A DNA stretch of 64,000 nt from Clostridiales bacterium (GCA_024680655.1 JAILBY010000026.1:4109-68108); one strand, 5' to 3'; positions 4,595-61,502 are shown, counted from the first letter of the stretch. Notes: generated by a model not told the origin, from the sequence alone. Made by a program: numbers and translations.

Positions 4595-6679
4595 ATGGAA
4601 TCAAAAAGCAAATTTGACTACGAAGTGGAAGCCTTTGAAAAAGCTTTTGCGGATATGCGCGACAAACGAATCGCTTTGTACGGAACAGGCCGCATGACGG
4701 CCACGTTGTTGGAGCGGTTGAAAGGCTTTAACATCGTAGGAGTTCTTGATAAAAACTCAGAATTGGTCGGCTCTTATGTATTTGGAAAAGAGGTTCTTGA
4801 CCAAAAAAAAGCTGAGTCTGTTGCCGACCTTATAGTTATTAACACTTCTGGGGCTTATTGGGATACAATTTATCAAAGAATAGCGGATTATAAAATACCA
4901 ATATATTATCGCAACGGCGAATTGGCTTGCAATAAGGCCAAGGATTTTGAAAGCAACGAGTATTGGGAAAAAAATGAAGAGGATTTGCGGAGCCAAATTT
5001 TAAAAGCCGATGTCATTTCTTTTGATGTTTTTGACACCTTGCTTGTTAGAAGGGTGACCGACAATATGGATGTTTTTCGTATTGTCGAAGACAAGTTGCG
5101 CTTAAAATATGGCGATTTAAATTTTGTTCAAATCAGAAAACAAGCTGCAGGAATAAATGCAAACCCGACAATCGATGAAATTTATGGCGCTGTCAAAGAT
5201 TTGTCCGGTTGGCCAGATAAATGCATAAACTGCGCGAAACAGGCCGAAATAGATACCGAGATGGCTCTGATAGCGCCACGGACCGCTGTCGTGGATTTGT
5301 ACCGCGAGGCTGTCAAATGCAAAGACGTGTATCTTGTGAGCGACATGTATTTTCCCAAGGAAATTATATGTGATTTTTTAACAAGCGTTGGTGTATCCAT
5401 TGATATTAACCATATCGTTGTTTCTTGCGACTATAAAAAAAGCAAGCAAGACGGCGCCTTGTGGGAGCATTATTCCACTGCATTTGTGAAGGGGAGAAAG
5501 GCTCTTCACATTGGCGATGATGTCAAAGGAGATGTCATTGAGCCCGCTCGTTTTGGCATAAAGACTTATGAAGTGTGGAGCGAGGCTAAGTTGGTGGAAA
5601 ACTCGTATTTGAGCGGCACAAATGCGTTTGCGAATTCGACTTTTGAATCTATTTTGTGTTCGACTCTGACAAATAAAATATGCAACGATCCATTTTGCTT
5701 TCATAAGAGCAAAGGAAAAGTTGTTTTTTCAAATGAGAAGGAAGCAGGATATGTTCTGCTTGGGGCAGTTGTCTATGTCTTTTGCAGTTGGCTTTTGGAG
5801 CAGGCAAAAAAAGATAATGTTGCGCAGCTTCTTTTTCTGGCAAGGGATGGATATCTAATAAAAAAAATGTTTTTTGCGTATTGCAATCTGATTGGCGAAA
5901 AAAACATGCCAGAGCTTGTTTACTTGGAAACTTCAAGGCGGGCTGTTTTAACCGCTTTTATCCGAACAAAGGACGATATTGCGGAGGTGGCTGATTTTCC
6001 GTATAACGGCGCAAGAAAAGATTTCTTTTATGACAGGTTTGGAATAGAAGTGGCCGACGCCGAAAAAGAACCTCTTTATTATGCGGACGAAATACTAAAA
6101 GAGGCAGAGCGCGAAAGAAAGAATTACTTGCGATATCTTGATTCGCTGAATATTAAAGACGATTGCGCTGTAATAGACACATTGCTGTATGGAACCGTTC
6201 AGTACTATCTTGGAAAAATTTCGCGGCGTAATTTTTTAGGGTATTATCTATGCGTCCGGCTTGATTCTGCCAACCGTTATCTTGTGTCAAATAAAATGAA
6301 AGGCTGCTTTTGCGGAGAACACGGCGAGCAGTCTAACATCTGCAAGAATAATGTTTTTTCGGATTCGTTTTTTACGGCTCCAAACGGCATGATGGAATGT
6401 GTTTGCGATGACGGAACGATAAAATACAAGCCTAATGGAAAAAGTCAGGAAAACTTTGCCGTAAGAGAGGATATGCTTGACGGAATAATTGATTTTATGA
6501 AGGATGTCGAAGCTGTGAAAAAAGCTTCCGGCGTTTCCTATACGAATTCTTCGGAGTGGGCTGACAAGGCTTTTGGAATATTGATGCAAGGCGCGTTTGA
6601 ACCTACCGCAAAAATGAAAGAAGCCTTTTATTATGACAATGGGATTGCCGGCAGGCAGGAATCGGCCATATTTGAATAA
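4595..6679 (+). CDS. Rossmann-like module + HAD-superfamily hydrolase-like domain + large uncharacterised C-terminal region
   Basis: N-terminal RIALYGTGRMT...VGVLDKN. HAD motif I ISFDVFDTLLVRR, late motif HIGDDVKGDV. The C-terminal half contains LLFLARDGYLI. Confidence 0.65.
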   Translation: MESKSKFDYEVEAFEKAFADMRDKRIALYGTGRMTATLLERLKGFNIVGVLDKNSELVGSYVFGKEVLDQKKAESVADLIVINTSGAYWDTIYQRIADYKIPIYYRNGELACNKAKDFESNEYWEKNEEDLRSQILKADVISFDVFDTLLVRRVTDNMDVFRIVEDKLRLKYGDLNFVQIRKQAAGINANPTIDEIYGAVKDLSGWPDKCINCAKQAEIDTEMALIAPRTAVVDLYREAVKCKDVYLVSDMYFPKEIICDFLTSVGVSIDINHIVVSCDYKKSKQDGALWEHYSTAFVKGRKALHIGDDVKGDVIEPARFGIKTYEVWSEAKLVENSYLSGTNAFANSTFESILCSTLTNKICNDPFCFHKSKGKVVFSNEKEAGYVLLGAVVYVFCSWLLEQAKKDNVAQLLFLARDGYLIKKMFFAYCNLIGEKNMPELVYLETSRRAVLTAFIRTKDDIAEVADFPYNGARKDFFYDRFGIEVADAEKEPLYYADEILKEAERERKNYLRYLDSLNIKDDCAVIDTLLYGTVQYYLGKISRRNFLGYYLCVRLDSANRYLVSNKMKGCFCGEHGEQSNICKNNVFSDSFFTAPNGMMECVCDDGTIKYKPNGKSQENFAVREDMLDGIIDFMKDVEAVKKASGVSYTNSSEWADKAFGILMQGAFEPTAKMKEAFYYDNGIAGRQESAIFE

Positions 6680-6698
6680 CGCGCAAGGAGTTTGAGGT

Positions 6699-7817
6699 TT
6701 GAATCATTTTTCAGACGACTGGAAAAACTTAAAGCATATTGTCCTGTATGGGTATGGAAATGTTGGAAAGGCGTGCTTTAACAAAATAAAGTCTGATTTT
6801 TCCGTAGATTTCATAATGGACAAGGATACGGAAAAATTAAAAAAAGGCGCATTCGGCGTTCCCGTGCTTTCTCCAAAAGACGGTTTGGCGGCTCTTGACG
6901 GTCAGAAAATCATTGTAATGACAGGCGGAAGAGTTTATCAAGAAATATCCGATTTTCTAAAAAACGAAGGCCTAGTGGAGTTTAAGGATTATTGCGGCAT
7001 TGAGTATTTGATAACTCATTGGTACTGGGAAGTAAAAGGCCTGAACTGCGTGATGGAGCTGCACAGCGCCTTAACAATGGATTGCACGTTAAAATGCAAA
7101 AATTGCAATATGTTTGTTCCGTTTTATGAAAAAAGCGTGTCGTATGACTTGCACAGCCTTAAAGAAGATGTTGACGCGCTTTTTAAGTATGTTGATTATG
7201 TTTTTTGCTATACTTTGCTTGGCGGAGAGCCTTTTTTGTATAAGCAGATTGGGGAATTTATTCAATATCTAGCGACATCATACAGAAATAAGATTGGAAC
7301 GATAAAAATAATAACAAACGGCACTTTGATTCCAAAAACAGAAACAATTGACGCGCTTTGCAAGTTTAATATTTGGGTAAGCGTGAGCGATTATACAACT
7401 TGCGTTCCATACCAAAAACGATTGGAAGAGTTGAAGACTGTTTTTGAAAATAACGGCGTTGATTATACAATTGCAAGCCAGGGCAACTGGTTAGCCTTTG
7501 GTTTTCCCAATGCCCCTGCTTGCATTGACAAAGAATATTGCGCCGCCCACATGAAAAACTGTTCTCCCATTTTTCACGGCTACAATGACAAAAAAATATT
7601 TTATTGCCATGTGGCGTGGAGCGCCGAAAAAATCGGGAAGTATGTTCTGCAAGAAAAAGATTTTGTTGACTTGGAGAAGTTGCCTGTGAGCGACAGGCAT
7701 GTCATTGCGGAACATTGCTTGGGCAACATAAAAGACGGCTATGTTAGTTTTTGTCGTGTGTGCGGCGGTTGTGGAAATGACAATGAGAATGTCGTTCCTG
7801 CCGGCGAGCAGGAGTAG
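6699..7817 (+). CDS. Rossmann-like module + radical SAM enzyme with Cys-rich (SPASM/twitch-like) C-terminus
   Basis: TTG start 8 nt after aaggag. HIVLYGYGNVGKA module. CxxxCxxC in CTLKCKNCNM. C-terminal CRVCGGCG. Confidence 0.8.
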   Translation: MNHFSDDWKNLKHIVLYGYGNVGKACFNKIKSDFSVDFIMDKDTEKLKKGAFGVPVLSPKDGLAALDGQKIIVMTGGRVYQEISDFLKNEGLVEFKDYCGIEYLITHWYWEVKGLNCVMELHSALTMDCTLKCKNCNMFVPFYEKSVSYDLHSLKEDVDALFKYVDYVFCYTLLGGEPFLYKQIGEFIQYLATSYRNKIGTIKIITNGTLIPKTETIDALCKFNIWVSVSDYTTCVPYQKRLEELKTVFENNGVDYTIASQGNWLAFGFPNAPACIDKEYCAAHMKNCSPIFHGYNDKKIFYCHVAWSAEKIGKYVLQEKDFVDLEKLPVSDRHVIAEHCLGNIKDGYVSFCRVCGGCGNDNENVVPAGEQE

Positions 7818-7825
7818 GGGGGGGG
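7817..7825 (+). repeat. Poly-G tract (G9) filling the junction between two genes
   Basis: The first G is the last base of stop TAG 7815-7817 and the last G abuts ATG 7826. It is the longest G run in an AT-rich window. Confidence 0.95.
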
Positions 7826-8929
7826 ATGATTTCGTTTAGAAATTGTACAATGAATGAAGCCGTTGATAGATTTTCTAAGAGGCGGATAATTCCCTTTGGT
7901 ACTGGCCTTTGGTTTAATTATTTACAATATACAGATTTGCGCTTGTTGAATGAAAATTATGTGTACGCAATTGATAACAATCTCCAACGTACAGAAGTTG
8001 AATTTTGCAATAGGCGTTTGCCTGTGCGCGGCGTTGATTCTTTGCTGCGGGAAACAGATGCGGTTGTAATTATTACTAGCCCAATCCATATGTATGATAT
8101 GTATACGCAGCTAAGCGCAATGAACCTTCCTGATACCATAGAATGCTATGCGCTACCGTTTGTCCAATTGGTTAGTGATGCTAATTATTCAAAATTGGAG
8201 GAGCGGCGCGCAATAAATTGCAAAAATTTAAATAAAATACCAAAGATAATTCATTGCTTTTGGTTTAGCGGTGATGAAAAACCAGAAAGTTATAAACGTT
8301 GCTTTGATACATGGAAGAAAGTGTGTCCTGACTATCAAATAATTGAATGGTCAAAAGATAATTATGATTATAAAAAAAATGAATTTTGTAAAAAAGCAAT
8401 AGAACTGGGGGCGTGGGCTTTTGCCTCTGATTTTGCGCGTCTTGATGTAGTGCATAGGATGGGTGGATTCTACATGGATATGGATGTTGAGTTGCTAAAG
8501 CCATTGGATGACTTTTTAGGCAACGAGGGCGTTTTTTCTTTTAGCAATAATATAACTGTTGATTTAGCTGTTTTTGGCGCCGCCAAAGGCAATGTTCTGG
8601 TAAAGAAATTGTTGGACTTGTATTCTAAGGTTGACATTCCCAATACTAGAAAGGAGTTTGACAAGTGTTTTCAGCCAAATATTATTTTGCCAACCTTGCT
8701 TGACTATGGATTAAAATGTGATGGAAGTTTTCAGATTGTCGAAAAAAATGCCTTCCTCCCAAGATGTTATTTTATGCCGATGGATTTGGTCTTGTTTGAA
8801 CTTGCCGCTAAAAATGAACGCACTTATGCTATTCATTGGGATAATTTTGGTTGGTATTCTGGCGGCAATGACACGCGTAAGAATAAAGAGGTTAATAATA
8901 GAAAGTTGTGGGCGATGCTAGGGGAGTAA
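7826..8929 (+). CDS. Degenerate Rossmann-like module + GT32/Gly_transf_sug-type glycosyltransferase (DXD)
   Basis: IPKIIHCFWFSGDEKPESYKRCFDTWKK and ASDFARLDVVHRMGGFYMDMDVE are typical of the sugar-binding DXD family. The N-terminus reads RRIIPFGTGLWF. Confidence 0.65.
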   Translation: MISFRNCTMNEAVDRFSKRRIIPFGTGLWFNYLQYTDLRLLNENYVYAIDNNLQRTEVEFCNRRLPVRGVDSLLRETDAVVIITSPIHMYDMYTQLSAMNLPDTIECYALPFVQLVSDANYSKLEERRAINCKNLNKIPKIIHCFWFSGDEKPESYKRCFDTWKKVCPDYQIIEWSKDNYDYKKNEFCKKAIELGAWAFASDFARLDVVHRMGGFYMDMDVELLKPLDDFLGNEGVFSFSNNITVDLAVFGAAKGNVLVKKLLDLYSKVDIPNTRKEFDKCFQPNIILPTLLDYGLKCDGSFQIVEKNAFLPRCYFMPMDLVLFELAAKNERTYAIHWDNFGWYSGGNDTRKNKEVNNRKLWAMLGE

Positions 8930-8957
8930 TGCATGAACTCAAATCGATATTTAGGAG

Positions 8958-10154
8958 ATGTTTTTACGCATGATGTTAAGTAAATACTTGCAAAGAATAA
9001 AATCTTCTCAAAAGCGTGTGGTTCTATATGGCGCGGGAAAGATAGGCAAAGCCTTAAAATCAATGCTTGAAAAGAACAATATATTGCCCCAAGGCTTTGT
9101 TGTTAGCGACAAGAACATGAATAAGGATGAAGTTGATGGCCTTAAAGTGTTTGGACTTGATGAGGTGATAAATTTGTGGGGTGGTGAAAATATTCTTGCC
9201 CTTGTCGCTGTGAAAGAACCTTGGAATAACGAGGTTGTTGCTAAAATAAAAAGTTGTCGTAATTTGGAATATCTTGATATTATCCCTGAACTGCTTACGC
9301 TTGACATAAAACCAGAACTTTTTGAAATAAACGCTGTTGTTGGATGTTCTGTCGCTTGTAAGTATTGCCCACAGTCCGCGTTAATAAAGGCTTACAGCGC
9401 GAAGAATGCTGCTTCTCCGCGTGTATTGTCATTTGATGTGTTCCGCCAAGCCTTGGATAAAATACCAGTGAAAAAAAATATAGCGTTCAGTGGTTTTTCG
9501 GAGCCTTTCTTGAATCCTGATATTACAAAAATGATAAAATATGCGCATGAGAAAGGGCACGGAATCATGCTTAATACGACGCTTGTGGGCATGACAAAGG
9601 AAAAATTCGCGGAAATTCGTGATATTCCAATTGCAAATTTTACTTTGCATTTGCCCGACAAAGATAATTATGCAAAAATACCTATTACGGAACAATATAT
9701 TGAACTTTTGAAAATGGTTTTGGATTGGAAGTGGCTGAAGAATGGGAGCTATATTCCTGTCGTGGATAAGGCTAATGGCCAGGGGGCTTTGCCAAAAGAA
9801 GTTGAGCAAATTATACATGGAAAAGTATTGTTCCATTCTGAGCTGGCGGACAGAGCCGGAAATCTAGCAGATTCAGATATTTACAGTATAGGAACTCTTA
9901 ATGGACGCATACGCTGCAATTATTCACCGGATATTTCAAATTTTGTTATGATGCCAAATGGCGATGTGTACTTGTGTTGCATGGATTTCGGACTTCGACA
10001 TAAGATAGGAAATATTCTTGAACAAAGTTATGAAGATCTTCTAAAGAGTTCGGAACTTCAAAAAATACGAAAAGCCATGGATAGTGATGATGGTGAATGT
10101 TTGTGCAGGCATTGCACAGAGGCTCAAGTTATTGCTGAGTCGAAAAAAAGCTAG
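8958..10154 (+). CDS. Rossmann-like module + radical SAM/SPASM-like enzyme
   Basis: RVVLYGAGKIGKAL...QGFVVSD module. CxxxCxxC in CSVACKYCPQ. C-terminal Cys cluster YLCCMDFG...GECLCRHC. Alternative start ATG 8970. Confidence 0.8.
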   Translation: MFLRMMLSKYLQRIKSSQKRVVLYGAGKIGKALKSMLEKNNILPQGFVVSDKNMNKDEVDGLKVFGLDEVINLWGGENILALVAVKEPWNNEVVAKIKSCRNLEYLDIIPELLTLDIKPELFEINAVVGCSVACKYCPQSALIKAYSAKNAASPRVLSFDVFRQALDKIPVKKNIAFSGFSEPFLNPDITKMIKYAHEKGHGIMLNTTLVGMTKEKFAEIRDIPIANFTLHLPDKDNYAKIPITEQYIELLKMVLDWKWLKNGSYIPVVDKANGQGALPKEVEQIIHGKVLFHSELADRAGNLADSDIYSIGTLNGRIRCNYSPDISNFVMMPNGDVYLCCMDFGLRHKIGNILEQSYEDLLKSSELQKIRKAMDSDDGECLCRHCTEAQVIAESKKS

Positions 10155-10266
10155 ATGGTGTCAATGACTTCTATAGATGTAAAATGTTCCTTCGGGCGGT
10201 TTGTGTTAAGCTGTTTGAGAAAAATAAGTTTATATTTGGCGTGTAAGTTTTTGACCGATTCGTGGC

Positions 10267-11436
10267 ATGAAAACTGCGCTATTTTATAGCATTAAGAACG
10301 GGATAAATGTGATGAAAGATACAGAATATGTTTTGTTGCTCACAGGAACAGTAAATCCGTGCACTCAAGTACCTTTTTTGTCATTGAAGGACGGTTTTGT
10401 AAGAAAAAAACAATATTACGATGCTATAAAGTTTTATATTGAAGAATGCAAGGTAAAAAAAATAGTCTTTTGTGAGAATTCCTGTGAAAAATGTCCTGTG
10501 GAAATAACGGATTTAGCTCTTGAAAATGGCGTTGAATTTGAATGGCTGTCTTTTATAGGCGATGTAGAAGGATCTGTAAAAATAGATAAATCTTACGGCG
10601 AAGTAGAAATAATAAACTATGCGCTTGATCATAGCAAACTTATTAAGGCCTGCTCTTATTTTGTGAAGGCTACTGGAAGAGTAAAGGTTAGAAACTATAA
10701 GAAAATTATTGCAATGTTATCTACAAAGCGAAATTATTTTTCGGCATATGGTGATAATAAGCTTGATAGGCTTGATACGCGCTTCTTTTCAATGAAAGTT
10801 GAAGTGTACAAGAATTTTTTTTATAATGTATATGATAAGAATATTCCTGTAAAAATCAAATCGATAGAAAATTTATATCCTTTTGTAATAAGGGACAATA
10901 ACATCCCAATAGTGTCATTTCCTTTGAAAGTATGTTTTGATGGAATTTCTGGGGGGTTTGGATTCCCGTATGTAACTACGAAGAAAGAAGAAATTTTAGG
11001 ATCCCTAAAACAATTGTTTTTTACAATGTGTGGTCACCGTCTGTATTTACAAAGAACTTGTTATTGGCAAGGCGATATGATTGTAACAAAAGCAATTTGG
11101 AACACTTGTTTTGAAGAATTGACAGGGAAAAGGATTGTTATGTGTGGAGCAGGCAGGCTGGGGTGTTGTTTGGTCAAAACTGCAAAAGAAATGTCAAAAC
11201 TTGTGGCATGGACAGATACAAACTATGAAAAAATAAAATCCATATACGGAAGAAAAGTTGAGCCTCTTGATAAGGTTATGAATCGAAAAACTGATTTTTT
11301 TTTGATATGTGTTAAGGATAAAAAGTGTTATGAGGATATAAAGGCGAAAATTATTGGTTTCACAGGAAACGATTCAAATATTCGTTGGATAATGGATTTA
11401 ATGTCTAAATTAGATGGCCTTTTGCGTGCGGAGTGA
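10267..11436 (+). CDS. Unrecognised ~285-aa N-terminal domain + C-terminal Rossmann-like module
   Basis: Long ORF in the operon frame. The N-terminus (VLLLTGTVNPCTQ...IVFCENS) matches nothing I recognise. C-terminal KRIVMCGAGRLGCC...VAWTDTN. Alternative start ATG 10312. Confidence 0.6.
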   Translation: MKTALFYSIKNGINVMKDTEYVLLLTGTVNPCTQVPFLSLKDGFVRKKQYYDAIKFYIEECKVKKIVFCENSCEKCPVEITDLALENGVEFEWLSFIGDVEGSVKIDKSYGEVEIINYALDHSKLIKACSYFVKATGRVKVRNYKKIIAMLSTKRNYFSAYGDNKLDRLDTRFFSMKVEVYKNFFYNVYDKNIPVKIKSIENLYPFVIRDNNIPIVSFPLKVCFDGISGGFGFPYVTTKKEEILGSLKQLFFTMCGHRLYLQRTCYWQGDMIVTKAIWNTCFEELTGKRIVMCGAGRLGCCLVKTAKEMSKLVAWTDTNYEKIKSIYGRKVEPLDKVMNRKTDFFLICVKDKKCYEDIKAKIIGFTGNDSNIRWIMDLMSKLDGLLRAE

Positions 11437-11528
11437 ACTGTCATGCGGATGGTGTATATGCAAAAATAAAATGATTCCATGCTAGAATTTAAGATTCGAT
11501 GCAAATATAATTAGTTCAGGAGTTTTTA

Positions 11529-12497
11529 ATGATGGATTTTATGTTTCCTTATTGGGCGGTAAAAAAGGATAGTGACATTGTTTTGTATGGCGAGGGCAAT
11601 GTTGGAAAAGATTTTTTTCTTCAGCTTTATGAAACAAAATACTGCAATGTTGTTGCTTGGGTGGATAAGGTCTTTGACGGCTATGAATTGAGCAAGCCTT
11701 TTGACTATGTGAGCAATATAAAGAACTATAATGTGGATTATATTGTTTTGGCTGTTAAAGATAAGAAAACAGCTGATGAAATATCTAACGAGCTAAAACT
11801 CAAATGCGGCGTTGATGGTTCAAAAATAATTTGGTCAAACTATTACAACTTTAGCCGCGACTTTTTCCCTTCCGATAGACTGTTATATTTAAAAGATTTG
11901 GATTTTTACATGAGTCTTTTGGATGAATATATGGTCGCAGAAACTTTTTACGCTACAAAGGAATATTATCAGAGCTTTGAAAAACTTGGCATAAAAGGAT
12001 CTCGCAAGAATGCGGAACGTTTGGTGAAATACGGAATACATGAATTTTTGAACAAGGATGACAACGTCTTGGATATAGGCTGCAATTGCGGCTTCTTTTC
12101 TATGACTGTGGCTCCGTATGTAAAGAAGATTATTGGCGTGGATGTTGATGAAAACTTTATTAATATCGCGAATAAGGCAATGGCTTTTGCAAAAATTGAC
12201 AACGCTGAATTCTATGTAAAAGATGTGTTTGCTGACGGATTAAACGGTAATTATGACGCGATATTTATGCTTGCTTTGCCTGCCAATATAGGAGTTTACG
12301 AAAAGGCGAATGTGATTGCCAACCACATAACTCAAGGCGGCTATTTATTTTTGGAGTCTCACAATATGAAAGGCGAAAGTGAAAAGTATTTATTTAAGAA
12401 GTTGATAGATACGTATATCGAAAAAGGGCTAAAAAATGTTTGCCTCTATGACAATTTAGGTTCACAGGATCGTGATTTCTGTGTGCTAAGAAAATAA
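11529..12497 (+). CDS. Rossmann-like module + class I SAM-dependent methyltransferase
   Basis: DIVLYGEGNVGKDF...VAWVDK module. MTase motif I VLDIGCNCGFFS, then IIGVDVDENF and YDAIFML. Confidence 0.75.
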   Translation: MMDFMFPYWAVKKDSDIVLYGEGNVGKDFFLQLYETKYCNVVAWVDKVFDGYELSKPFDYVSNIKNYNVDYIVLAVKDKKTADEISNELKLKCGVDGSKIIWSNYYNFSRDFFPSDRLLYLKDLDFYMSLLDEYMVAETFYATKEYYQSFEKLGIKGSRKNAERLVKYGIHEFLNKDDNVLDIGCNCGFFSMTVAPYVKKIIGVDVDENFINIANKAMAFAKIDNAEFYVKDVFADGLNGNYDAIFMLALPANIGVYEKANVIANHITQGGYLFLESHNMKGESEKYLFKKLIDTYIEKGLKNVCLYDNLGSQDRDFCVLRK

Positions 12498-12506
12498 AAC
12501 TGTTTT

Positions 12507-13766
12507 ATGGGGCGAAAATTGTTAAGGGTGCTTGGAAAGTCAAAGGACTTTATGGACAATAAGGGGTGTATTGTTTGGGGAGCGACTAGAAGAACCGCAG
12601 TAAACTGTGCTAGCATTTATCTTGACGACAGGGAAGTTCGTGTTATAGACAGTCAGCGAGAAAAACACGGCCAAGTTCTATGTATTGGAAAAAAAGAGTT
12701 TGTTATAGAATCCAGTGATATTTTAAACAATCTGGATTCAAAAGCTTGGTGTCTGGCAATTTCAAGCCAAAATTATTACGAAGAAATAAGAGATTTAATA
12801 AGGGCTTCTTATGCAGGCTGGGATGCTTCGACAATAAATTTTGATCAATTGTACAGAACATATGAGTCATTGGATGATTTGTTTAAATTGGATTATGTTT
12901 TTCATAAGCGCATGTTGAATGCCTGTATATTAGGAGATATAGAAGCTTATCAAAATACTGCAAAGAATATAGTCTCAAGTTTTTTGTCCTGTAGTGGTTA
13001 TGAATATTTTTGCTTGCCAAGCGCTTCCAATGTTGTAATAATGATTCAGGGAGATGCAGACTCTTATGTCTTAAAGTTTCCTAGTTTTGACGGGTCGCAT
13101 TCTTTGAAACAAATAAAAGCAATATTGAATAATAAAGAGAAAATAATCGGGAAAGACAAACTTGTGTTGTATGAAGACTCCGAAGGCTTTGTGCTTTCTC
13201 GCAAGGCGCAGGTAATTGAAAACTGGGAGCAAGAGGAGGTAAAGCAAGCGCTATCCATCCTGAAACAAATCGAAAAATCAGATGTTTTAGTGGATAAGAA
13301 TATTGAGCCGTTATTGTTTGTATCTGAGAGACATGTAAAAAAATTCTGCAATCTTGAAGAAAAAAGAATTCAGACGCTTGTGAATGATATAAAGTGTCAT
13401 TCTGAAAAAAAACGAATTAGTCATGGGGACACTCATTGCGGTAATTTTCTTAAACATGAAAACGAAGTGTATTTGATTGATTGGGACACGCTAGCAATGC
13501 GCGATGATTTATGGGATGTTTTATTTTTTATAGGTGATTTATGGTATGGAAGGGCCGCGCGAATATACAAAAATTGGGAAGACATGTTGTTGGAATATTT
13601 AGACGGAAAAATTGATGATGTTATGATGAGGTACGCCAGGGCTAAGATGATCGGAATTATGATTAAAATTGAAGACGTCTTTTCAAAGGCTGGCGTAAAC
13701 ACAGATTTTATTACTGGTGAAATAAAAAAGAGCGTTAATGAATATGTCGCATTATATAAGTTGTGA
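12507..13766 (+). CDS. Degenerate Rossmann-like module + protein-kinase-like fold phosphotransferase (APH/choline-kinase type)
   Basis: Catalytic-loop region ISHGDTHCGNFLKHENEVYLIDWDTLAMRDDLWDV (HGD...N...IDWD pattern). N-terminus GCIVWGATRR. Confidence 0.65.
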   Translation: MGRKLLRVLGKSKDFMDNKGCIVWGATRRTAVNCASIYLDDREVRVIDSQREKHGQVLCIGKKEFVIESSDILNNLDSKAWCLAISSQNYYEEIRDLIRASYAGWDASTINFDQLYRTYESLDDLFKLDYVFHKRMLNACILGDIEAYQNTAKNIVSSFLSCSGYEYFCLPSASNVVIMIQGDADSYVLKFPSFDGSHSLKQIKAILNNKEKIIGKDKLVLYEDSEGFVLSRKAQVIENWEQEEVKQALSILKQIEKSDVLVDKNIEPLLFVSERHVKKFCNLEEKRIQTLVNDIKCHSEKKRISHGDTHCGNFLKHENEVYLIDWDTLAMRDDLWDVLFFIGDLWYGRAARIYKNWEDMLLEYLDGKIDDVMMRYARAKMIGIMIKIEDVFSKAGVNTDFITGEIKKSVNEYVALYKL

Positions 13767-13772
13767 ACCTTA

Positions 13773-13801
13773 TTGATTAAGTGGCAAAAGAATGGTAGTA
13801 T
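13773..13801 (+). promoter_or_regulatory. Weak sigma70-like promoter candidate placed for a leaderless or near-leaderless start
   Basis: TTGATT (13773-13778), 17-nt spacer, TAGTAT (13796-13801). A TATAAT overlaps at 13799-13804. ATG is at 13810. Confidence 0.3.
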
Positions 13802-13809
13802 AATTGAAT

Positions 13810-16407: not shown

Positions 16408-16458
16408 ATATATATTAAAGATGGAGAATTGTATATAAATTGAGAGGGCAAATAGGGG

Positions 16459-17376
16459 ATGGGAAAATTAACAAACTCTGAGAAAAAAATAATTAGAATC
16501 CTAGAGTCTTTGAATTTTGACACAATTGATGGTTGCATAGTGTTTCCTTATGGTAAATATGGGAAAGAAGTTGTCAAAATCATAAAACAAAAAAGCTGAA
16601 TTATGTTGTGGCGGATAATTTTTGTGATTCTAGCTATGAGAATGTACATCCGTTTGCGGACATTGTGCATAATAAATTTTATGAAAAATACGCGCTTATT
16701 TTTTCTGCTGCGAGAGAGGAAATCAGAAAGGATTTGATTCCTTATTACAAGGCATGGAAAGGAGAGAAAAGGGATGCGTTTCTTTTTGATGCTGATGTTT
16801 TTGGAGACATTCACGAAGATGATTGTAGGCTTGGTGCTCTGGAAAGGTGTGGAAGAGAAATCCTTAATAAGAATTTATCAGGAAGTGTTGCAGAAGCCGG
16901 CGTTTTTCGCGGTGATTTTGCGAGATATATCAATTGTATATTTCCCAACAAAAAAAATATATCTTTGTGACACATTCGAGGGCTTTGATAAAAGGGACAT
17001 TGCAGTTGACGATGAAAGAAAATTTTCAGAAGGCAGTCAAGATTGGAGTGAGACAAGCATTGATTTTGTCTTGTCAAGAATGCCATTTAAGGATAACTGC
17101 ATAGTGCGAAAAGGTTTCTTTCCCACGACCATGATTGATGTTGACGATACATTTTGTTTCGTCAGTTTGGATTTGGATTTGTATAAGCCGATATTTGATG
17201 GGCTTGAGTATTTTTATCCAAGACTTGTTAGAGGAGGGTATATATTTGTTCATGACTGTGTGAATAAAGGGTATCTTGGAGCTCGTGAGGCTGTCTTGGA
17301 GTTTTGTGCGAAACATAAAGTGGGATATGTGGTTCTGCCAGATGAATGGGGGACAGCGGTGCTTACGAAGGCGTGA
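16459..17376 (+). pseudogene. Rossmann-like module + TylF/MycF-type O-methyltransferase, disrupted by two frameshifts at poly-A tracts
   Basis: Three consecutive frame segments (16459-16599, 16557-16970, 16774-17376) join into one protein if A6 (16589-16594) gains one A and A8 (16950-16957) loses one A. The repaired joins read IIKQKKLNYVVADNF and FPNKKIYLCDTFEGFDKRD. TylF-like motifs: AEAGVFRGDF, LCDTFEGF, VSLDLDLY, GGYIFVHD. Confidence 0.75.
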
Positions 17377-21438: not shown

Positions 21439-21677
21439 CAAGAGAAGAAGTTTTTGAAAAGCTCAACGAAGTTTTTCGCGATGTTTTTGATGACGAGGAC
21501 ATCAAAGTAGCAGAATCTACAAACGCCGATGACATAGAAGACTGGGACAGTCTTTCTCATATCAATCTTGTTGTCGCTGTTGAAAAAGAATTCGGCATAA
21601 AATTCAGTATGGGCGAAACTCAGAAAATGAAGAACGTCGGCGAGATGGTTGATATTATCCTAGAGCGGACGAAATAG
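21435..21677 (+). CDS. Acyl carrier protein
   Basis: 80 aa, ATGA overlap with the FkbH-like gene. Phosphopantetheine-site motif IEDWDSLSHINLV. Confidence 0.8.
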   Translation: MTREEVFEKLNEVFRDVFDDEDIKVAESTNADDIEDWDSLSHINLVVAVEKEFGIKFSMGETQKMKNVGEMVDIILERTK

Positions 21678-52539: not shown

Positions 52540-52563
52540 AATGCCGCGTAAGGAGTTAACTTT

Positions 52564-53934
52564 ATGAGAGGGCCGGATTTGATTTCTGTAATAATTCCGA
52601 CATACAACAGAGCCTATTGTTTGGAAAAATCGATGCGCTCTGTGCTTAACCAAACTTATGGCAACATAGAGTTGATTGTTGTTGACGATTGTTCCACTGA
52701 CAATACAGAATCTGTTGTTCGTTCAATAGACGATTCTAGGTTGCGATATATAAAGTTGGGTAAAAACGGCGGCCCGTCAAAGGCAAGAAATGTTGGCATA
52801 GAGAATGCTCGTGGTAAATACATAGCCTTTCATGATTCCGATGACGTGTGCCATTTGGACAAATTGGAAAAACAATATGCCGAAATAATGAAGGATGAAA
52901 GCGTTCTTATGGTGTTTTGCCGATACAAAGTTTTTGGTGAAAAAGAATCAATTGTGCCTGCGGCAGATGTTGTTAATTGTGATGATAATTTTTTTGAACT
53001 TTTATTACAAGGTAATGTTATAGGTACGCCAACTATGTTGGTGAAAAAAAGTGTTTTTGACATTGTTGGCGGATTTAATGAGAGCCTTTCGACGTACGAG
53101 GATTGGGAACTTGCCTTGCGATTGGCTAAAAATGGAAGGATTTCATTTGTGGATGAAATCTTGTTGGATGTGTATGATTCAAAGAGTTCTGTAAATAAAC
53201 TTTTTGGGGTAAAAAGAATAAACGCTATCTTGCTTTTCTTTTCTCTTTATTGGAATGATGTTGAGGACAAGGCCGCATTTAAAACATTGGTTTTTTTAAT
53301 TTTTGCCGAGCTTAAATTTGCTGATGAAGCAGCTCAAAAAGAAACGTTGGATAAATTGAACCTTTACTTTCCTTTTTCGTCCTTGTTTTACCAGACTTAT
53401 CGCCTTACAAATGATCATATTGATAACCTTAGCACTAACTTGTCCAACATGAAGGCCGCCCATGATAACGCCGTTTCGATAATTTCAAATCTGCAAAATG
53501 AGTTGAATTTGCGACAGAATCACATCAATAATTTGAATGATACAATCAATAATTTGAATGATACAATCAATAATTTGAATAATACAATCAATTTCGAAAA
53601 ATCCAAAAAGTTCCTCATCAAAAAATGTGTAAACTATTTCTGTGATGATGGACTTGTGGCGAAACTTGGTACTAATTTCTCTTTATATGGTGCTGGAGAG
53701 GTCGCTCAAATCCTAATTCCTCTGTGTAAAAAATCAGGAATAGTAATTCCATATACAATCGACAGGAAGCCTAAAATTGTTGATGGCGTTCCTTCCTATA
53801 CTGTTTCTGATATTCCTGACAAAGAGCTTCCAATTATCATAACAGCTTACGATCCGCAGCGGTCAATAATTGGCGAGCTAAAAAAAGCACACAATGGTCC
53901 AATTCAATATCTTGATGAATTGCTAGTTGATTGA
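52564..53934 (+). CDS. GT2 glycosyltransferase + coiled-coil segment + C-terminal Rossmann-like module
   Basis: ISVIIPTYNRAYCL...LIVVDDCSTDNT, FHDSDD. Heptad-rich region at aa 283-348. C-terminal FSLYGAGEVAQIL. Confidence 0.85.
   Translation: MRGPDLISVIIPTYNRAYCLEKSMRSVLNQTYGNIELIVVDDCSTDNTESVVRSIDDSRLRYIKLGKNGGPSKARNVGIENARGKYIAFHDSDDVCHLDKLEKQYAEIMKDESVLMVFCRYKVFGEKESIVPAADVVNCDDNFFELLLQGNVIGTPTMLVKKSVFDIVGGFNESLSTYEDWELALRLAKNGRISFVDEILLDVYDSKSSVNKLFGVKRINAILLFFSLYWNDVEDKAAFKTLVFLIFAELKFADEAAQKETLDKLNLYFPFSSLFYQTYRLTNDHIDNLSTNLSNMKAAHDNAVSIISNLQNELNLRQNHINNLNDTINNLNDTINNLNNTINFEKSKKFLIKKCVNYFCDDGLVAKLGTNFSLYGAGEVAQILIPLCKKSGIVIPYTIDRKPKIVDGVPSYTVSDIPDKELPIIITAYDPQRSIIGELKKAHNGPIQYLDELLVD
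53524..53594 (+). repeat. 21-nt in-frame tandem repeat (3.3 copies) encoding the heptad INNLNDT
   Basis: atcaataatttgaatgataca at 53524-53544 and 53545-53565. 53566-53586 carries one substitution. A partial copy runs to 53594. Confidence 0.95.
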
Positions 53935-53946
53935 TAGAATCTTAAA

Positions 53947-55215
53947 ATGAAATTTTCTGTTGTAGTTCCTGTCTGCAATGTAGAGAAGTATCTTGCAGAA
54001 TGTTTGGACAGTATTCTTAAACAAAACATTTCTTCATTGGAAGTAGTATGTGTCAATGACGGCTCAACTGATTCATCACTTTCTATTTTGCGTGAGTTTG
54101 CAAAAAGTGATAGTCGCGTTGTGGTTGTTGATAAGCCCAATTCTGGTTATGGGGATTCTGTAAATATTGGCATAAATCGTGCCTCTGGTGATTATATAGG
54201 AATTGTTGAAAGTGATGACATCGTAGTTGATGGAATCTTTCAAAAAATGCTTACTATTGCAAAAAATACAGGCGTTGATTTTGTAAAAGGAACTTTCAAT
54301 TTTTACCAGGCAGAGAGTTGCACTCGGAATTTACATCCTAATTTTATGAATCTTCCATGCGACAAAATAATTTCTGTAAATGAATATCCTGAACTTTTCT
54401 TTACAGCGCCTTCAATATGGAGCGGAGTCTATAAGAGGTCCTTCCTCGACGAGAACAAAATTCGTTTCTTGCCGACTCCAGGAGCAAGTTATCAGGATAC
54501 TTCCTTTGCGTTCAAAGTCTGGGCGACAGCAAAGTCCGTGTACCTGCTTTCTGATCCTGTTATTGATTACCGGCAGGATAGTTCAGGCTCTTCAAGCAAC
54601 ATAAGCAAAAAAGTATTTAATATTTTTAATGAAACAAAAGAAATGGAGCGTTTTATAAAAGAAAATGAACTTGAGCGTTTTTATCCAGAATTCGTAAAGA
54701 CGAAATTCATAAGTTATGCATGGACCCTTGCTAGGCTCAATGAAAATGACAAGCGTAAGTTTTTTTTGCGGTGGATTCCAGAATTGACATCAGAATTTGA
54801 AAAAGGGTATTTTGTAAAAAAATATTGGGATGATTATAATTGGAATTACATTCATCAACTTGTTTTTAATCCCCAGCAAAGCATAGAAAATGTTTGTTCT
54901 TCTACGCCTATTTTAGCTCCTGCATTTTCCAAAATTGAAATTTTATCAAAAATTACACCTGTTTACATATATGGAGCTGGAAAATACGGTCAGATTGCAT
55001 TAAAGAAACTAAAAGTTCATGGAGTAAATACTTCTGCATTCGTTGTTTCTAGTAGAGATGATAACCCTGGAAGTGTTGATGGAATACCCGTTATTCAACT
55101 CGATGAAATTGACAAAGATGGAATCATCTTTATAGGTTTATCTGAAAAGTATAAGATGGAAGTTCTTAAATTATTAAAAGATAGATGGCTTTTTAATAAT
55201 GTATTTGAAATTTGA
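53947..55215 (+). CDS. GT2 glycosyltransferase + C-terminal Rossmann-like module
   Basis: FSVVVPVCNVEKYL...VVCVNDGSTDSS, VESDD. C-terminal VYIYGAGKYGQIALKKL...SAFVVSSRDDNPG. Confidence 0.85.
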   Translation: MKFSVVVPVCNVEKYLAECLDSILKQNISSLEVVCVNDGSTDSSLSILREFAKSDSRVVVVDKPNSGYGDSVNIGINRASGDYIGIVESDDIVVDGIFQKMLTIAKNTGVDFVKGTFNFYQAESCTRNLHPNFMNLPCDKIISVNEYPELFFTAPSIWSGVYKRSFLDENKIRFLPTPGASYQDTSFAFKVWATAKSVYLLSDPVIDYRQDSSGSSSNISKKVFNIFNETKEMERFIKENELERFYPEFVKTKFISYAWTLARLNENDKRKFFLRWIPELTSEFEKGYFVKKYWDDYNWNYIHQLVFNPQQSIENVCSSTPILAPAFSKIEILSKITPVYIYGAGKYGQIALKKLKVHGVNTSAFVVSSRDDNPGSVDGIPVIQLDEIDKDGIIFIGLSEKYKMEVLKLLKDRWLFNNVFEI

Positions 55216-55224
55216 GAGAAAAAT

Positions 55225-56721: not shown

Positions 56722-58712
56722 CAGAATCAATTTGGCGTTGGTTCTCATTCAAGAAGGAATCTTCTATATGCTTTGTGAGTGCAGATACTGTTTTGAATGA
56801 CAGATTCGACTACATTATAGTCTTGGATTTTTCCTCTCTAAAAGGCGAGAATTCTGAAATTTTAAAAAATCTACGTTCTCACTTAAAATTTGGTGGAACA
56901 CTTCTATTAGGATTTGATAACAGTCTTGCATATCGTTTTTTTTGCGGGGACACAAAAATAGAAGGAAAACAATATTTCACCAAGCATGAAATAAAAAATC
57001 TTCTTGCTTCTGCAGAAATAAAATCCTATAAGTTTTATTCTGTTTTTCCATGTCTTGAAGCGGCACAACTTATTTATGCGGACACATTCACGCCTGCAGA
57101 AAACCTAAACATTCGTTTCCTCCCACTTTATAATAACCCGGATTCTGTTTTCAAATTTGAGGAATCAGGCTATGACGATTTAATACAAAATGGCCTTTTT
57201 CATTCTATGGCAAATGCTTTTTTAGTCGAATGCAATGATGAGGGAGTTTTTAATAATGCCTTGCAAATTACTCTTAGTGCCGATCGTGGAAATGATATGT
57301 CCTATGCGACAATTATACGAGAAAATGATACTGTTATTAAAAAGCCTCTTTTTTCTAATGGTACAAAAAAACTGGAAGTTTTACAGAAAAACCTTTTTGA
57401 CATAAAAAAATTGGGGCTTAATGTAGTTGAAGGAAGTCTGAATTATGATGAATTCTCAATGCCTTTTGTGAATGCTCCTTTGGGAAATGTTTATTTACAG
57501 GAACTTGCTCAAAAAGATAGGGATTCATTTATTAAAAAAATGGATCATTTCCGAGAATTGATTTACAAATCTGCGGAAAATGGTATTTGTTACTTTGATT
57601 TAGTTCCCCTTAATTCTTTCTATGTTGATGGGGACTTTTCTTTTTTTGATCAGGAATTTGACTTGCCAGCGTCTGATTACCCGCCAGAGATGCTTGTTTA
57701 CAGAACAATTGTTATTGTTTACTCAGATTTTGAGAAGATGAATGCAATTGCTCCCATTGATTTTTTCTGGAAACGATACGGGATTCAAGATAAGTTGCCT
57801 GAACTAGAAAAGCTTTCCCATGAATTCCTTATGAGCCTTAGAAATCAAGAACAACTAAAATCTTTTAATGCACTTCATCAAAGGAAAGATGCGGTTGTAA
57901 GGTTTAATATGGCTCAACGTAATCAGACTCATTTTTATGATTCTCTCTTAAATAGAAATTTCATTGAAGGTACTTTCGGAAAAAAAGTTTGCGTTTTTGG
58001 AAGCGGAAGGTTTGCAGAAAAATTTATTTCGCAATATGGAGACAATTGCGATGTTGTGCAAGTTGTTGATAATGATTCATCAAAATGGAACTCTGACTTC
58101 CATGGAATAAAAATTTCGTCTCCTTCAACACTTTCAAATATTTCTGATGATATTTGTCTTGTTATCTGTGTAAAAGATTATAAACCTATATACAATCAAT
58201 TGCTTTCAATTAATATAAAAAACATTGTTTTATATGATGCGCATAAAAACTATTCTGTAGGCGATTTAAAAGATGGTGAAAACAAAAAATACCACGTTGG
58301 TTATCTGTCTGGAGTCTTTGATCTTTATCATATTGGTCATATTAACATGTTCCGGCGCGCAAAGGAAATGTGCGATTACTTGATTGTAGGGGTAACAAGT
58401 GATGAATATGTACTAAATAAAAAGAAAAAAACTCCTTTTATCCCTTGTGAAGAACGGATGCAGGTTATTCAAGCCTGCAAATATGTTGATAAGGTTGTGA
58501 AAGTTCCTTACCTGCACGAAGAAATCACGGAGGCGTGGAATACATATCATTATGATGTCCAGTTTTGTGGTTCTGATTATGAAAACAATCCTTGGTGGCT
58601 TGAACAGCAAAAATGGCTCCGCGAGCATGGCGCTGATTTGGTCTTCTTCCCGTATACAGAACAAACAAACTCCACAAAGATCAAGGCTTTGATAGAGAAG
58701 GGCTTGTTATGA
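56700..58712 (+). CDS. Four-domain fusion: MTase-like (motif I not evident) + kinase-like fold + Rossmann-like module + TagD-type cytidylyltransferase
   Basis: aa 35-75 FDYIIVLDF...LKFGGTLLLGFDN. aa about 295-320 ICYFDLVPLNSFYVDGDFSFFDQEF (kinase-like catalytic-loop pattern with HGD replaced). aa 428-512 KVCVFGSGRFAEKF...VVDND. aa 530-670 GVFDLYHIGHINMFRRAKE (HxGH) ...CGSDY. Confidence 0.7.
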   Translation: METEKKLTESIWRWFSFKKESSICFVSADTVLNDRFDYIIVLDFSSLKGENSEILKNLRSHLKFGGTLLLGFDNSLAYRFFCGDTKIEGKQYFTKHEIKNLLASAEIKSYKFYSVFPCLEAAQLIYADTFTPAENLNIRFLPLYNNPDSVFKFEESGYDDLIQNGLFHSMANAFLVECNDEGVFNNALQITLSADRGNDMSYATIIRENDTVIKKPLFSNGTKKLEVLQKNLFDIKKLGLNVVEGSLNYDEFSMPFVNAPLGNVYLQELAQKDRDSFIKKMDHFRELIYKSAENGICYFDLVPLNSFYVDGDFSFFDQEFDLPASDYPPEMLVYRTIVIVYSDFEKMNAIAPIDFFWKRYGIQDKLPELEKLSHEFLMSLRNQEQLKSFNALHQRKDAVVRFNMAQRNQTHFYDSLLNRNFIEGTFGKKVCVFGSGRFAEKFISQYGDNCDVVQVVDNDSSKWNSDFHGIKISSPSTLSNISDDICLVICVKDYKPIYNQLLSINIKNIVLYDAHKNYSVGDLKDGENKKYHVGYLSGVFDLYHIGHINMFRRAKEMCDYLIVGVTSDEYVLNKKKKTPFIPCEERMQVIQACKYVDKVVKVPYLHEEITEAWNTYHYDVQFCGSDYENNPWWLEQQKWLREHGADLVFFPYTEQTNSTKIKALIEKGLL

Positions 58713-59839: not shown

Positions 59840-59864
59840 TATTGGCATTGGTTGTATATCGCTA

Positions 59865-59893
59865 TTGAAAAATCTTGCTTTTATTGTTAAAAT
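59865..59893 (+). promoter_or_regulatory. sigma70-like promoter with extended -10, placed for a leaderless start at 59901
   Basis: TTGAAA (59865-59870), 17-nt spacer, TGtTAAAAT (59885-59893), then 7 nt to ATG 59901. No SD is visible. Confidence 0.5.
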
Positions 59894-59900
59894 GTAAAAT

Positions 59901-61502
59901 ATGTCTGACAAAAAACGTGTTTACCTCAATTTAATTTTGTATGAATATAATTTAGAGCATTTTAATTTCTTAAAGAATTTGGCGGCTGAATATGGAAGCC
60001 TTACCATAGGAATCCCCTCAGATTATGTTATGGCGCGTCTTTTTGGGGAAGGTCGCAACGGTTATTCGGCGGAGCGAGTTAGAGATTTTTGGCTTCAGTT
60101 TAAATTTGTAGAAGACATAGTGGTTTTTGACAATCATAAATTCGGCTATCAAGATATGTATGAAAAACTTCACTTTGACGTGTGTTTTTATGGGTCAGAG
60201 TACGGAATACAGTTTGTAAAAGATAAAGCGTTTTTTGAATCGCGTGGCGTTTCTTTTTTGTCACTCATGCCAGAAAATTTTATATTTACCAATCCGATTG
60301 ATTCTTTTTCTCTTTCATTAAAAAACATTCAAAAAGACAAAAAACTAATTCTTTTTGGTACTGGCAAATACTTTGACTTGTTTATTAAAAGATATTCTTC
60401 CCAGTGTGCAATTGCTTACGCGGTTGACAATAATTCAAACCTTTGGAATACTCAAAAAAGCTCTGTTCAAATATTTTCTCTTGAAAAATTAAAAGAGGAA
60501 AATGTTCAAGATTGTCTTGTCGTCTTGTGCGCAAAAAACTTTTCTTCTATGAAAAATGATCTTTTTTCGGTTGGCGAATTTAATTACAGGACATTGATTT
60601 TTTGTAATCCCATTTCGCTTTTGGAAGAAATGTGTCTTGGCCTCAAAGCTGAAGACGAGTATTTGAAAAAAGCTCAAAGAATAAATCTTATTATGATGGC
60701 AGAAGTTAATCGTGTTTGCAAAAAATACAATATTCCTTATTATGTTATTTGTGGAAGCCTTATTGGAGTTGTTCGCCATCATGGTTTTATTCCTTGGGAT
60801 GACGATGTAGATTTGGCATTTACGCGGGAAGGATACGAAAAACTAAAATCTGTCGCTAAAAACGAATGGGCAAGCGGTGATTTTACATTTGTTGATTATG
60901 AAGATTATGGCGTTTTTTATGATTTTATGCCACGTCTTGTCTACAACAAAGAACGCCTTCCCATTAAGGCTTTTGATAAGGTTAACGATGTGTCGGCTGT
61001 TGATGTAAGAGGTAAATTGTTTGTTGATTTTTATATTTTTGAGGATGCTGGAAAAAATCCAAAGAGACACTATAGGGCGGTAAAAAAAATGCAAGCAATT
61101 TACACTATGTGTATGGGGCATCGTCCTTGTCTTGATTTTGATGAATACAAGAGGCTTCCTAAGTCTAAAATAATGCTTTTAAAAGTGATGACAAAAATAG
61201 GATCGTTAATACCATTAAAAACATTGTTCTCTTGGTATGAAAAAACGCGTCGTTTTGCTATTAATGAAAACAGCGATTATTATTTTTGCGCCAATTTTGC
61301 TATTTTGTGCATAGATAGGCGTATAAAGAAGGCTTTTTTGGGAAATGGCAAGGAAATGCAAATGGAGAATTTAAAAGTTAGGGTTCCAATTGATTGCGAC
61401 GCCTTTTTGGAAAACATGACTTACCACAATTATATGAATTATCCAGGACTGTCAGTCCAAAAGCCATCGCATTATTTTAATTCTGACATTGAAATATGGT
61501 AG
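59901..61502 (+). CDS. Degenerate cytidylyltransferase-like domain + Rossmann-like module + LicD-family phosphotransferase
   Basis: aa 5-125 align by eye with the TagD-like domain of the 56700 protein, but HxGH is replaced (YEYNLEHFNF). aa 147-235 LILFGTGKYFDLF...YAVDNN. LicD core YYVICGSLIGVVRHHGFIPWDDDVDLAF. Confidence 0.8.
   Translation: MSDKKRVYLNLILYEYNLEHFNFLKNLAAEYGSLTIGIPSDYVMARLFGEGRNGYSAERVRDFWLQFKFVEDIVVFDNHKFGYQDMYEKLHFDVCFYGSEYGIQFVKDKAFFESRGVSFLSLMPENFIFTNPIDSFSLSLKNIQKDKKLILFGTGKYFDLFIKRYSSQCAIAYAVDNNSNLWNTQKSSVQIFSLEKLKEENVQDCLVVLCAKNFSSMKNDLFSVGEFNYRTLIFCNPISLLEEMCLGLKAEDEYLKKAQRINLIMMAEVNRVCKKYNIPYYVICGSLIGVVRHHGFIPWDDDVDLAFTREGYEKLKSVAKNEWASGDFTFVDYEDYGVFYDFMPRLVYNKERLPIKAFDKVNDVSAVDVRGKLFVDFYIFEDAGKNPKRHYRAVKKMQAIYTMCMGHRPCLDFDEYKRLPKSKIMLLKVMTKIGSLIPLKTLFSWYEKTRRFAINENSDYYFCANFAILCIDRRIKKAFLGNGKEMQMENLKVRVPIDCDAFLENMTYHNYMNYPGLSVQKPSHYFNSDIEIW

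Follow-up and report, generated by a model that had tools for sequence, protein, structure and literature searches.

In a 64-kb stretch of DNA from a Clostridiales bacterium (64,000 nucleotides, JAILBY010000026.1:4109-68108; referred to here as the window), which holds cell-surface glycan genes on one strand throughout at ~38% GC, a single module of ~85 amino acids (aa) was found 16 times, fused to the products of 14 different genes, 13 of them intact and one broken. All 16 segments lie in the open reading frame (ORF) of their host and carry the glycine-rich sequence pattern by which a preliminary description of this DNA had recognized them. The module is a divergent subfamily, without a Pfam model at threshold, in the CoA_binding_3, PglD_N, C2185-like_N and Rex group of small Rossmann-like domains. 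The feature is real and general, and it is neither a new fold nor unique to the window.

The preliminary description, made from the sequence alone, had proposed that the 16 segments are copies of one homologous module, and BLASTP, leave-one-out hidden Markov models (HMMs) and an external profile agreed on this. Most copies were joined to one another in an all-versus-all BLASTP comparison, e.g., copies 8 and 12 (13819 and 50443) at E 1.7e-21 and copies 15 and 16 (57981 and 60339) at E 1.5e-16. When the leave-one-out HMMs were searched against the complete six-frame set of window ORF fragments (663), 12 copies were recovered at E ≤1.5e-4. Copies 3 (7880) and 13 (53674) gave weak matches (E 0.13 and 0.29), yet they ranked right after the true copies, and copy 7 (12561) was missed among these 663 fragments. 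The weak cases could be settled because an independent external profile recovered them. This profile was built from 286 module copies of 148 proteins outside the window, after two proteins identical to window proteins had been taken out, and it matched 14 window copies at domain E values of 2.2e-22 to 5.7e-9 and copy 7, in the kinase-like protein, at 9.2e-4. The kinase-like host was also collinear from residue 1 with a homologue from Pseudobutyrivibrio ruminis (locus L023), whose N-terminal module scored 8.8e-8. No module copies beyond the 16 were found in the window with the external profile, and the best remaining matches were true NAD-binding Rossmann domains, one RmlD-like (45808-45978, E 0.008) and one of the Polysacc_synt_2 family (43192-43389, E 0.097).

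In the TylF-like O-methyltransferase gene, copy 10 is interrupted where the reading frame shifts at an A-run (near 16585-16592). The external profile matched the two frame fragments of the copy separately (E 0.38 and 0.77), and when these were rejoined across the A-run the copy covered profile positions 6-81 with an E value that varied with the choice of junction, from about 1e-4 to 5e-3. The gene as a whole (16459-17376) contains two frame changes, the one at the A-run and a further one within about 16774-16967, and is either a pseudogene or the product of homopolymer sequencing errors. With regard to the hosts, the enzyme labels given in the preliminary description held for all but one, family matches confirming two radical SAM proteins, a Gly_transf_sug/Caps_synth protein, a methyltransferase, an APH-like kinase, GT2+GT4, GT2+GT2 and two single GT2 proteins (GT denoting glycosyltransferase families), a cytidylyltransferase, LicD and TylF. 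The label "HAD-like" for the host of copy 1 has as its sole basis a weak NCBIfam match (E 0.0011) and a DVFDT motif.

To place the module among known domains, sequence and structure comparisons were combined. None of the 15 window copies searched reached a Pfam gathering score. Sub-threshold matches to PglD_N (PF17836) were obtained for 6 of the 15, the best at 20.7 bits against a cutoff of 23.4 bits, and to C2185-like_N (PF22674) for 2 of the 15 (best 17.1 bits against a cutoff of 27), and CoA_binding_3 (PF13727) gave no match at E ≤1 among the same copies. The N-terminal positions 2-90 of the NCBIfam model TIGR03570 (NeuD/PglB/VioB) matched window copies at E values of 3e-9 to 9e-6. An AlphaFold2 (AF2) model of copy 8, with an alignment of only the 15 window copies as input, had a predicted local distance difference test score (pLDDT) of 96.1 and the element order strand-helix-strand-strand-strand-helix-strand. 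In a Foldseek search of the PDB with this model, the Rex-family NAD(H) sensors came out on top, and the other matches in the same range of template modeling scores (TM-scores; 0.66 to 0.76) were the WbaP cytoplasmic domain (8t53), 3nkl (the N-terminal domain of a WbpM/PglF-type dehydratase), 2g6t and the N-domains of the acetyltransferases VioB, PglB, PerB and Pcryo_0637. A 64-copy profile compared with the PDB matched 3nkl at 1.1e-11, Rex at 1.5e-8 and 4.7e-8, WbaP residues 146-236 at 1.1e-6, 2g6t residues 17-89 at 5.5e-6 and VioB at 5e-5, and a profile of window copies only still matched 3nkl, at 3.5e-7. The two relationships suggested in the preliminary description, to the N-domain of NeuD/PglD and to CoA_binding_3-type domains, were thus both borne out, the former by the PglD_N and TIGR03570 matches and the fold comparison, and the latter by 3nkl and the WbaP domain, with the PF13727 model itself unmatched. 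The tandem pair of the GT2+GT2 protein (copies 11 and 12) was predicted by AF2 as one confident unit (pLDDT 90.5, predicted TM-score 0.72), and no two-domain analogue of this di-module model was found among solved structures.

The module resembles each of these families in part. CoA_binding_3, which occurs in large monotopic phosphoglycosyl transferases (WbaP) and in PglF/WbpM/CapD-type dehydratases, provided the best sequence match (3nkl) and has the same fold (TM-score 0.76), and a setting in surface-glycan synthesis is common to the module and WbaP. However, CoA_binding_3 proper is flanked by a four-helix membrane bundle on one side and a catalytic domain (Bac_transf or Polysacc_synt_2) on the other, whereas the module is found on dozens of unrelated soluble enzymes, and the window hosts have no adjacent transmembrane bundle, Bac_transf or Polysacc_synt_2 domain. 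PglD_N, the N-domain of the NeuD/PglB/VioB/PerB sugar N-acetyltransferases, is of similar size, has a Rossmann-like sheet with helices, and shares with the module a YGAxGxG loop and the Asp ending β2, which contact uridine diphosphate (UDP) in PglD; its fold matches were VioB (7txp), the PglB acetyltransferase (4m98) and PerB (4ea7), with TM-scores of 0.67 to 0.73, and also 7l7y. In contrast to these enzymes, no window copy is followed by a left-handed β-helix acyltransferase domain, and no hexapeptide or left-handed β-helix family was found in any host. C2185-like_N is the N-domain of the uncharacterized Clostridium acetobutylicum protein CAC2185 (2g6t; TM-score 0.69 over 93 columns), a protein from the Clostridia with a different C-terminal domain and hence the same kind of fusion; no published function for it was found in a literature search. 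The NAD(H)-binding domain of Rex, which senses a nucleotide and dimerizes, showed strong profile and fold similarity (Rex residues 84-171 only) and has the GxGxxG loop, but the winged-helix DNA-binding domain of Rex is present in no host, the module is shorter, and its context is enzymatic and not transcriptional. The module is homologous to CoA_binding_3 and PglD_N, yet it fails the cutoff of each Pfam family and lacks their characteristic neighbor domains.

Motifs of the ligand-binding type are conserved in the module. Among the 286 external copies, the first Gly of the β1-αA loop (G10) was present in 92%, the second (G12) in 64% and the third in 43%, and the Asp at the end of β2 (D34) in 62%. 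In PglD, UDP is contacted by Ser13 and Asp35/36 (PMC8040287). When the PglD sequence (with numbering that agrees with PMC8040287) was aligned to the module profile, these residues fell on positions 12 and 34/35.

The preliminary description had regarded the fusion pattern as a peculiarity of a single locus, and this did not hold. The 15-copy alignment gave no match at E ≤1e-3 in a word-index homologue search, the index probably being ill-suited to a short, diverse profile. In an exhaustive profile search over 1.84 billion representative proteins, 15,218 representative clusters matched at E ≤1e-3, a count that probably takes in related classical families, and 306 at E ≤1e-10. Most of the top matches (123 of 150) carried two to four copies, in any position. 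Four copies per protein form a tandem array in P0003 and are regularly spaced in P0002 and P0009, and P0012 (315 aa) apparently consists of three modules and nothing else. Candidate module-only proteins in this representative set could be fragments of longer proteins and were not taken as established; if these and the four-copy proteins are full-length, the module is also a repeat scaffold.

We also scanned one genome per species for module-rich loci, using as query a four-copy sub-alignment, which biases the loci found toward a "YIYGAG" subgroup. This yielded 25 loci, mostly from Lachnospiraceae, Acetatifactor, Butyrivibrio, Eubacterium, Eisenbergiella, Treponema and Selenomonadaceae, with one from Alteromonas. 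No locus identical to that of the window was among them, and the relatives point to gut or rumen anaerobes like the Lachnospiraceae. Counted with the external profile per 20 kb, the densest was L020 (12 modules in 12 ORFs), followed by L009 (11), L019 (10), and L018 and L025 (9 each). The Alteromonas locus (L022, from the marine gammaproteobacterium Alteromonas aquimaris) has five modules in four adjacent ORFs at 5678-11392, so that the pattern reaches beyond anaerobic gut lineages. At two places in L020 (Bacterium C-53), 3073-4506 and 7418-8941, a short module ORF (180 and 157 aa) is in frame with a neighboring ORF, with nothing but a stop codon or 24 nt between the two. Each could represent either a module on its own or part of a fusion gene that a stop codon interrupts.

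The 108 module-bearing ORFs of the other loci carried 46 partner Pfam families, including GT2 (33), RgpF (12), GT1/GT4, GT8, Caps_synth, WbsX and TagF-type transferases, as well as radical SAM/SPASM proteins, several methyltransferase families, FkbM, cytidylyltransferases, MptE-like proteins and xylose-isomerase-like TIM barrels; the partner range within L020 was the same as in the other loci. A similar spectrum was seen in the multi-copy protein set, with the addition of LicD, GT-D and DUF4422. PF22674 was matched by 8 of 78 external module proteins (E down to 1.1e-15), and PF08484, a C-methyltransferase C-terminal domain, by 9 of the 78. Current domain libraries mostly miss this accessory domain, given that not one of the 15 window copies is called by Pfam and that PglD_N at E ≤1e-5 was found in 2 of the 108 ORFs from other genomes; a dedicated HMM would improve the annotation of such glycan loci. 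The module belongs to a known superfamily, but no paper was found that describes or explains its fusion to these classes of glycan-pathway enzymes, in a searched literature that excludes most subscription journals and so leaves such absence unproven.

For most of the window fusion proteins, full-length homologues covering both module and partner exist elsewhere. The GT2 protein with a C-terminal module (host of copy 14) has 27 homologues in other loci, and the GT2+GT2 protein has 57%-identical full-length homologues with both modules in metagenome-assembled genomes of Treponema (L002 and L004). Homologues with module and partner were likewise found for the HAD-like protein (L003, L023 and L016), radical SAM protein 1 (L009), the GT32-like protein, host of copy 3 (L013 and L007), the kinase-like fusion, the coiled-coil GT2 protein of copy 13 (P0123, full-length with both parts), the cytidylyltransferase fusion (P0116, 56% identical) and the LicD fusion (P0016, P0068 and P0082). 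The best BLAST match of each window copy, where any existed, was in another genome, and identities within the window were at most 43%. Because of this, the copies are ancient paralogues inherited with their hosts, and the fusions are old, with individual fusions forming conserved gene families. Recent duplication within the locus, or concerted evolution, was considered and rejected on the same external best matches.

With homology, fold, motif conservation, spread and the age of the fusions observed as above, we infer a role for the module in ligand binding, regulation and self-association. By analogy with its relatives, the most likely function, which we put forward tentatively, is that of a portable nucleotide-binding, regulatory and self-associating or dimerizing accessory domain. 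In the course of evolution, the majority of soluble tailoring enzymes in the surface-glycan loci of gut and rumen anaerobes have acquired the module, be it N-terminally, C-terminally, within the chain or as a tandem. The ligand of each copy would be a nucleoside monophosphate, a nucleoside diphosphate (NDP) or the nucleotide portion of an NDP-sugar, bound through the Gly-rich β1-αA loop and the conserved Asp ending β2, and the copy, lying outside the catalytic site, would couple the activity or oligomeric state of its host enzyme to nucleotide or NDP-sugar levels. The model for such a self-associating regulatory domain is WbaP, whose isolated domain (residues 146-272) is stabilized by UMP, UDP and UTP, responded to uridine nucleotides in a screen of 20 nucleotides, forms most of the dimer interface and has been proposed to be a sugar-independent allosteric regulator (PMC10942596). 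We favor this reading because the module sits anywhere, often in tandem, on catalytic folds that already have complete nucleotide sites; at least 46 partner Pfam families of unrelated folds, combined with placement in any position, are typical of regulatory or oligomerizing modules and unlikely for a domain that completes each active site. Several observations nevertheless weigh against it. PglD-type enzymes, which are near in fold and motif, use the domain for substrate binding and not for regulation, and the β-hairpin that mediates WbaP dimerization (PMC10942596) is absent from the AF2 model of the module. NAD(H) is also a possible ligand, because the similarity to Rex nearly equals that to 3nkl. 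Furthermore, two window copies have degraded loops (WGATRR in copy 7 and FGTGLWF in copy 3) and copy 14 is missing the Asp (FVVSS at 54958), and all of these persist, something that a structural or docking role would explain no less well. Finally, the conserved Gly-rich loop does not by itself prove ligand binding, because the tight strand-helix turn requires it structurally.

The example of PglD, NeuD, VioB and PerB could instead be taken literally, with each module serving its own protein as a substrate handle. It would grip the UDP, dTDP, GDP or CDP moiety of an NDP-sugar or NDP-alcohol while the enzyme to which it is fused acts on that compound, and every decorated enzyme would have a nucleotide-linked substrate. 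We consider this rather unlikely, even though the PglD-type N-domain is a UDP-binding platform whose contact residues map to the loop and Asp of the module, and the TIGR03570 matches point the same way. It would also be in keeping with the matches to PF08484, the dTDP-sugar-binding domain of TcaB9-type enzymes, and the radical SAM, methyltransferase, kinase-like and TIM-barrel isomerase hosts plausibly modify NDP-sugars. However, the GT-A, GT-B, LicD, TagF and cytidylyltransferase folds already contain complete nucleotide-binding sites, and N-terminal, C-terminal, internal or two- to fourfold tandem placement on unrelated folds is hard to square with a defined composite active site. The candidate module-only proteins likewise speak against a substrate handle. 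A docking role, in which copies on different enzymes bind one another or a common hub and bring the soluble pathway enzymes into one membrane complex, with nucleotide binding lost or secondary, seems to us improbable. Such a role would account for decoration at the level of the locus, with nearly all genes of two blocks carrying the module and the NDP-sugar synthesis enzymes and membrane proteins between them free of it, and for densities of 9 to 12 decorated ORFs within 20 kb elsewhere; tandem architectures, candidate module-only proteins and the retention of copies with degraded loops are in line with it as well. The NAD(H)-binding domain of Rex is a dimer interface, and so is the related domain of WbaP (PMC10942596). 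Yet there was no sign of co-evolution or homogenization among the copies of one locus, whose closest matches are external, and ligand-type motifs are still conserved across the family. The module might also be a nucleotide-gated docking domain, whose homo- and heterotypic association would gather most soluble tailoring enzymes of a glycan pathway into a membrane-proximal assembly line. This is also doubtful; if true, it would be an unrecognized principle by which Lachnospiraceae, Treponema and other anaerobes organize the synthesis of surface polysaccharides, to be compared with the docking domains of polyketide synthases. Least probable is a Rex-like redox sensor, through which the binding of NAD(P)(H) would link glycan tailoring to the redox state of the cell. 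The Rex profile matches, the position of the Rex family at the top of the Foldseek list, the classic GxGxxG motif and the acidic residue ending β2 speak for it. On the other hand, the model has two helices in ~85 residues, so that the latter half of a Rossmann fold for dinucleotides would be missing. In sequence, the module is nearest to 3nkl, one of the CoA_binding_3 domains of glycan pathways, and the single domain of this kind that has been tested, that of WbaP, showed a response to uridine nucleotides (PMC10942596).

Should nucleotide sensing or assembly prove true, the surface-glycan tailoring machinery of abundant gut and rumen bacteria would be largely under shared control or held in complexes. 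The "one-size-fits-all" regulatory idea for the WbaP domain would then extend from the initiating enzyme to whole pathways.

Within the window, the module is present on all nine consecutive genes of 4595-17376 and on five of the seven genes of 50110-61502 (Table 1). In the external-profile search, none was found on the standard NDP-sugar synthesis enzymes and membrane proteins that lie between the two module-rich blocks, and the Polysacc_synt_2 protein (43153-44196) was likewise without it.

Table 1. Positions of the 16 module copies in the window, with their host proteins and supporting matches (external E, domain E value with the external profile)
Copy	Position	Strand	Placement and host	Evidence
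1	4658..4903	+	N-terminal, 694-aa HAD-like protein (ORF 4595-6679)	external E 2.4e-12; leave-one-out 7.5e-10
2	6732..6980	+	N-terminal, radical SAM protein 1 (ORF 6699-7817)	external E 2.1e-15; Radical_SAM PF04055 aa 127-229
3 (FGTGLWF loop)	7874..8152	+	N-terminal, Gly_transf_sug/Caps_synth glycosyltransferase (ORF 7826-8929)	external E 5.7e-9
4	9009..9254	+	N-terminal, radical SAM/SPASM protein 2 (ORF 8958-10154)	external E 3.8e-15; TIGR03570 NeuD_NnaD positions 2-90 E 9.4e-6
5	11125..11400	+	C-terminal, 389-aa protein with no other recognized domain (ORF 10267-11436)	external E 2.7e-13; leave-one-out 2.1e-6
6	11565..11849	+	N-terminal, class I SAM methyltransferase (ORF 11529-12497)	external E 6.6e-13; Methyltransf_31 aa 175-282
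7 (degenerate: WGATRR loop, Asp kept)	12558..12806	+	N-terminal, APH/EcKL-like kinase-fold protein (ORF 12507-13766)	external E 9.2e-4
8	13816..14079	+	first of N-terminal tandem pair, GT2+GT4 protein (ORF 13804-16407)	external E 1.3e-19; PglD_N sub-threshold 19.9 bits
9	14110..14373	+	second of tandem pair, GT2+GT4 protein	external E 8.1e-16
10 (frameshift-split)	16534..16739	+	broken TylF-like methyltransferase gene (about 16459-17376)	TylF PF05711 in ORF 16774-17376
11	50116..50391	+	first of N-terminal tandem pair, GT2+GT2 protein (ORF 50110-52539)	external E 2e-18
12	50440..50718	+	second of tandem pair, GT2+GT2 protein	external E 1.3e-19; TIGR03570 positions 2-86 E 3.2e-9
13	53674..53892	+	C-terminal, GT2 protein with coiled-coil-like linker (ORF 52564-53934)	external E 2.3e-9
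14	54955..55182	+	C-terminal, GT2 protein (ORF 53947-55215)	external E 1.1e-17
15	57978..58262	+	internal, right before cytidylyltransferase domain, 670-aa protein (ORF 56700-58712)	external E 2.2e-22; CTP_transf_like aa 536-646
16	60333..60581	+	internal, before LicD domain, 533-aa protein (ORF 59901-61502)	external E 1.9e-15; LicD PF04991 aa 273-506

Radical SAM/SPASM protein 2, the host of copy 4, has an identical counterpart on a 3-kb Logan contig (SRR15145254), the only record with an exact protein match, for which a faint C2185-like_N match is recorded, and the host of copy 6 shows a sub-threshold C2185-like_N match at aa 62-101. In the LicD fusion, the N-terminal ~140 aa upstream of the module (59901-60330) have no Pfam match and resemble a degenerate cytidylyltransferase-like segment; if this segment is indeed cytidylyltransferase-like, the fusion would be a three-part one.

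The gene content of the window comprises TagF-like and LicD proteins, many GT2 and GT4 glycosyltransferases, two UDP-galactopyranose mutases, MBOAT, Acyl_transf_3, YfhO, DegT and GtrA proteins and a set of Polysacc_synt_2, RmlD-like and Epimerase_2 enzymes. The two UDP-galactopyranose mutase genes (17621-18760 and 58709-59839; GLF domain E 6.5e-80 and 3.5e-76) are paralogous and each adjoins one module-rich block, and their presence points to galactofuranose as a constituent of the glycan or glycans made. The stretches 19630-25969 and 39048-41065 encode an FkbH-like protein, short-chain dehydrogenases, an MBOAT protein and an AMP-binding enzyme, all without the module; together these hint at a polymer with acyl or glyceryl-type decoration. 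Directly upstream of the second module-rich block lies a gene (47864-49996) for a 710-aa protein with DUF7657 (E 1.8e-109) and DUF7654 domains. An AAA_14/DUF4143 ATPase gene (3371-4546), which follows the TagF-like gene and precedes the first module-rich block, looks foreign to the glycan locus. All sizeable genes of the window (1-64000) are on the + strand, and the cumulative GC skew climbs monotonically over the 64 kb. The AT skew is strongly negative (about -0.2) at 26 to 36 kb, in the same place as the large membrane proteins (Acyl_transf_3 and YfhO-like).

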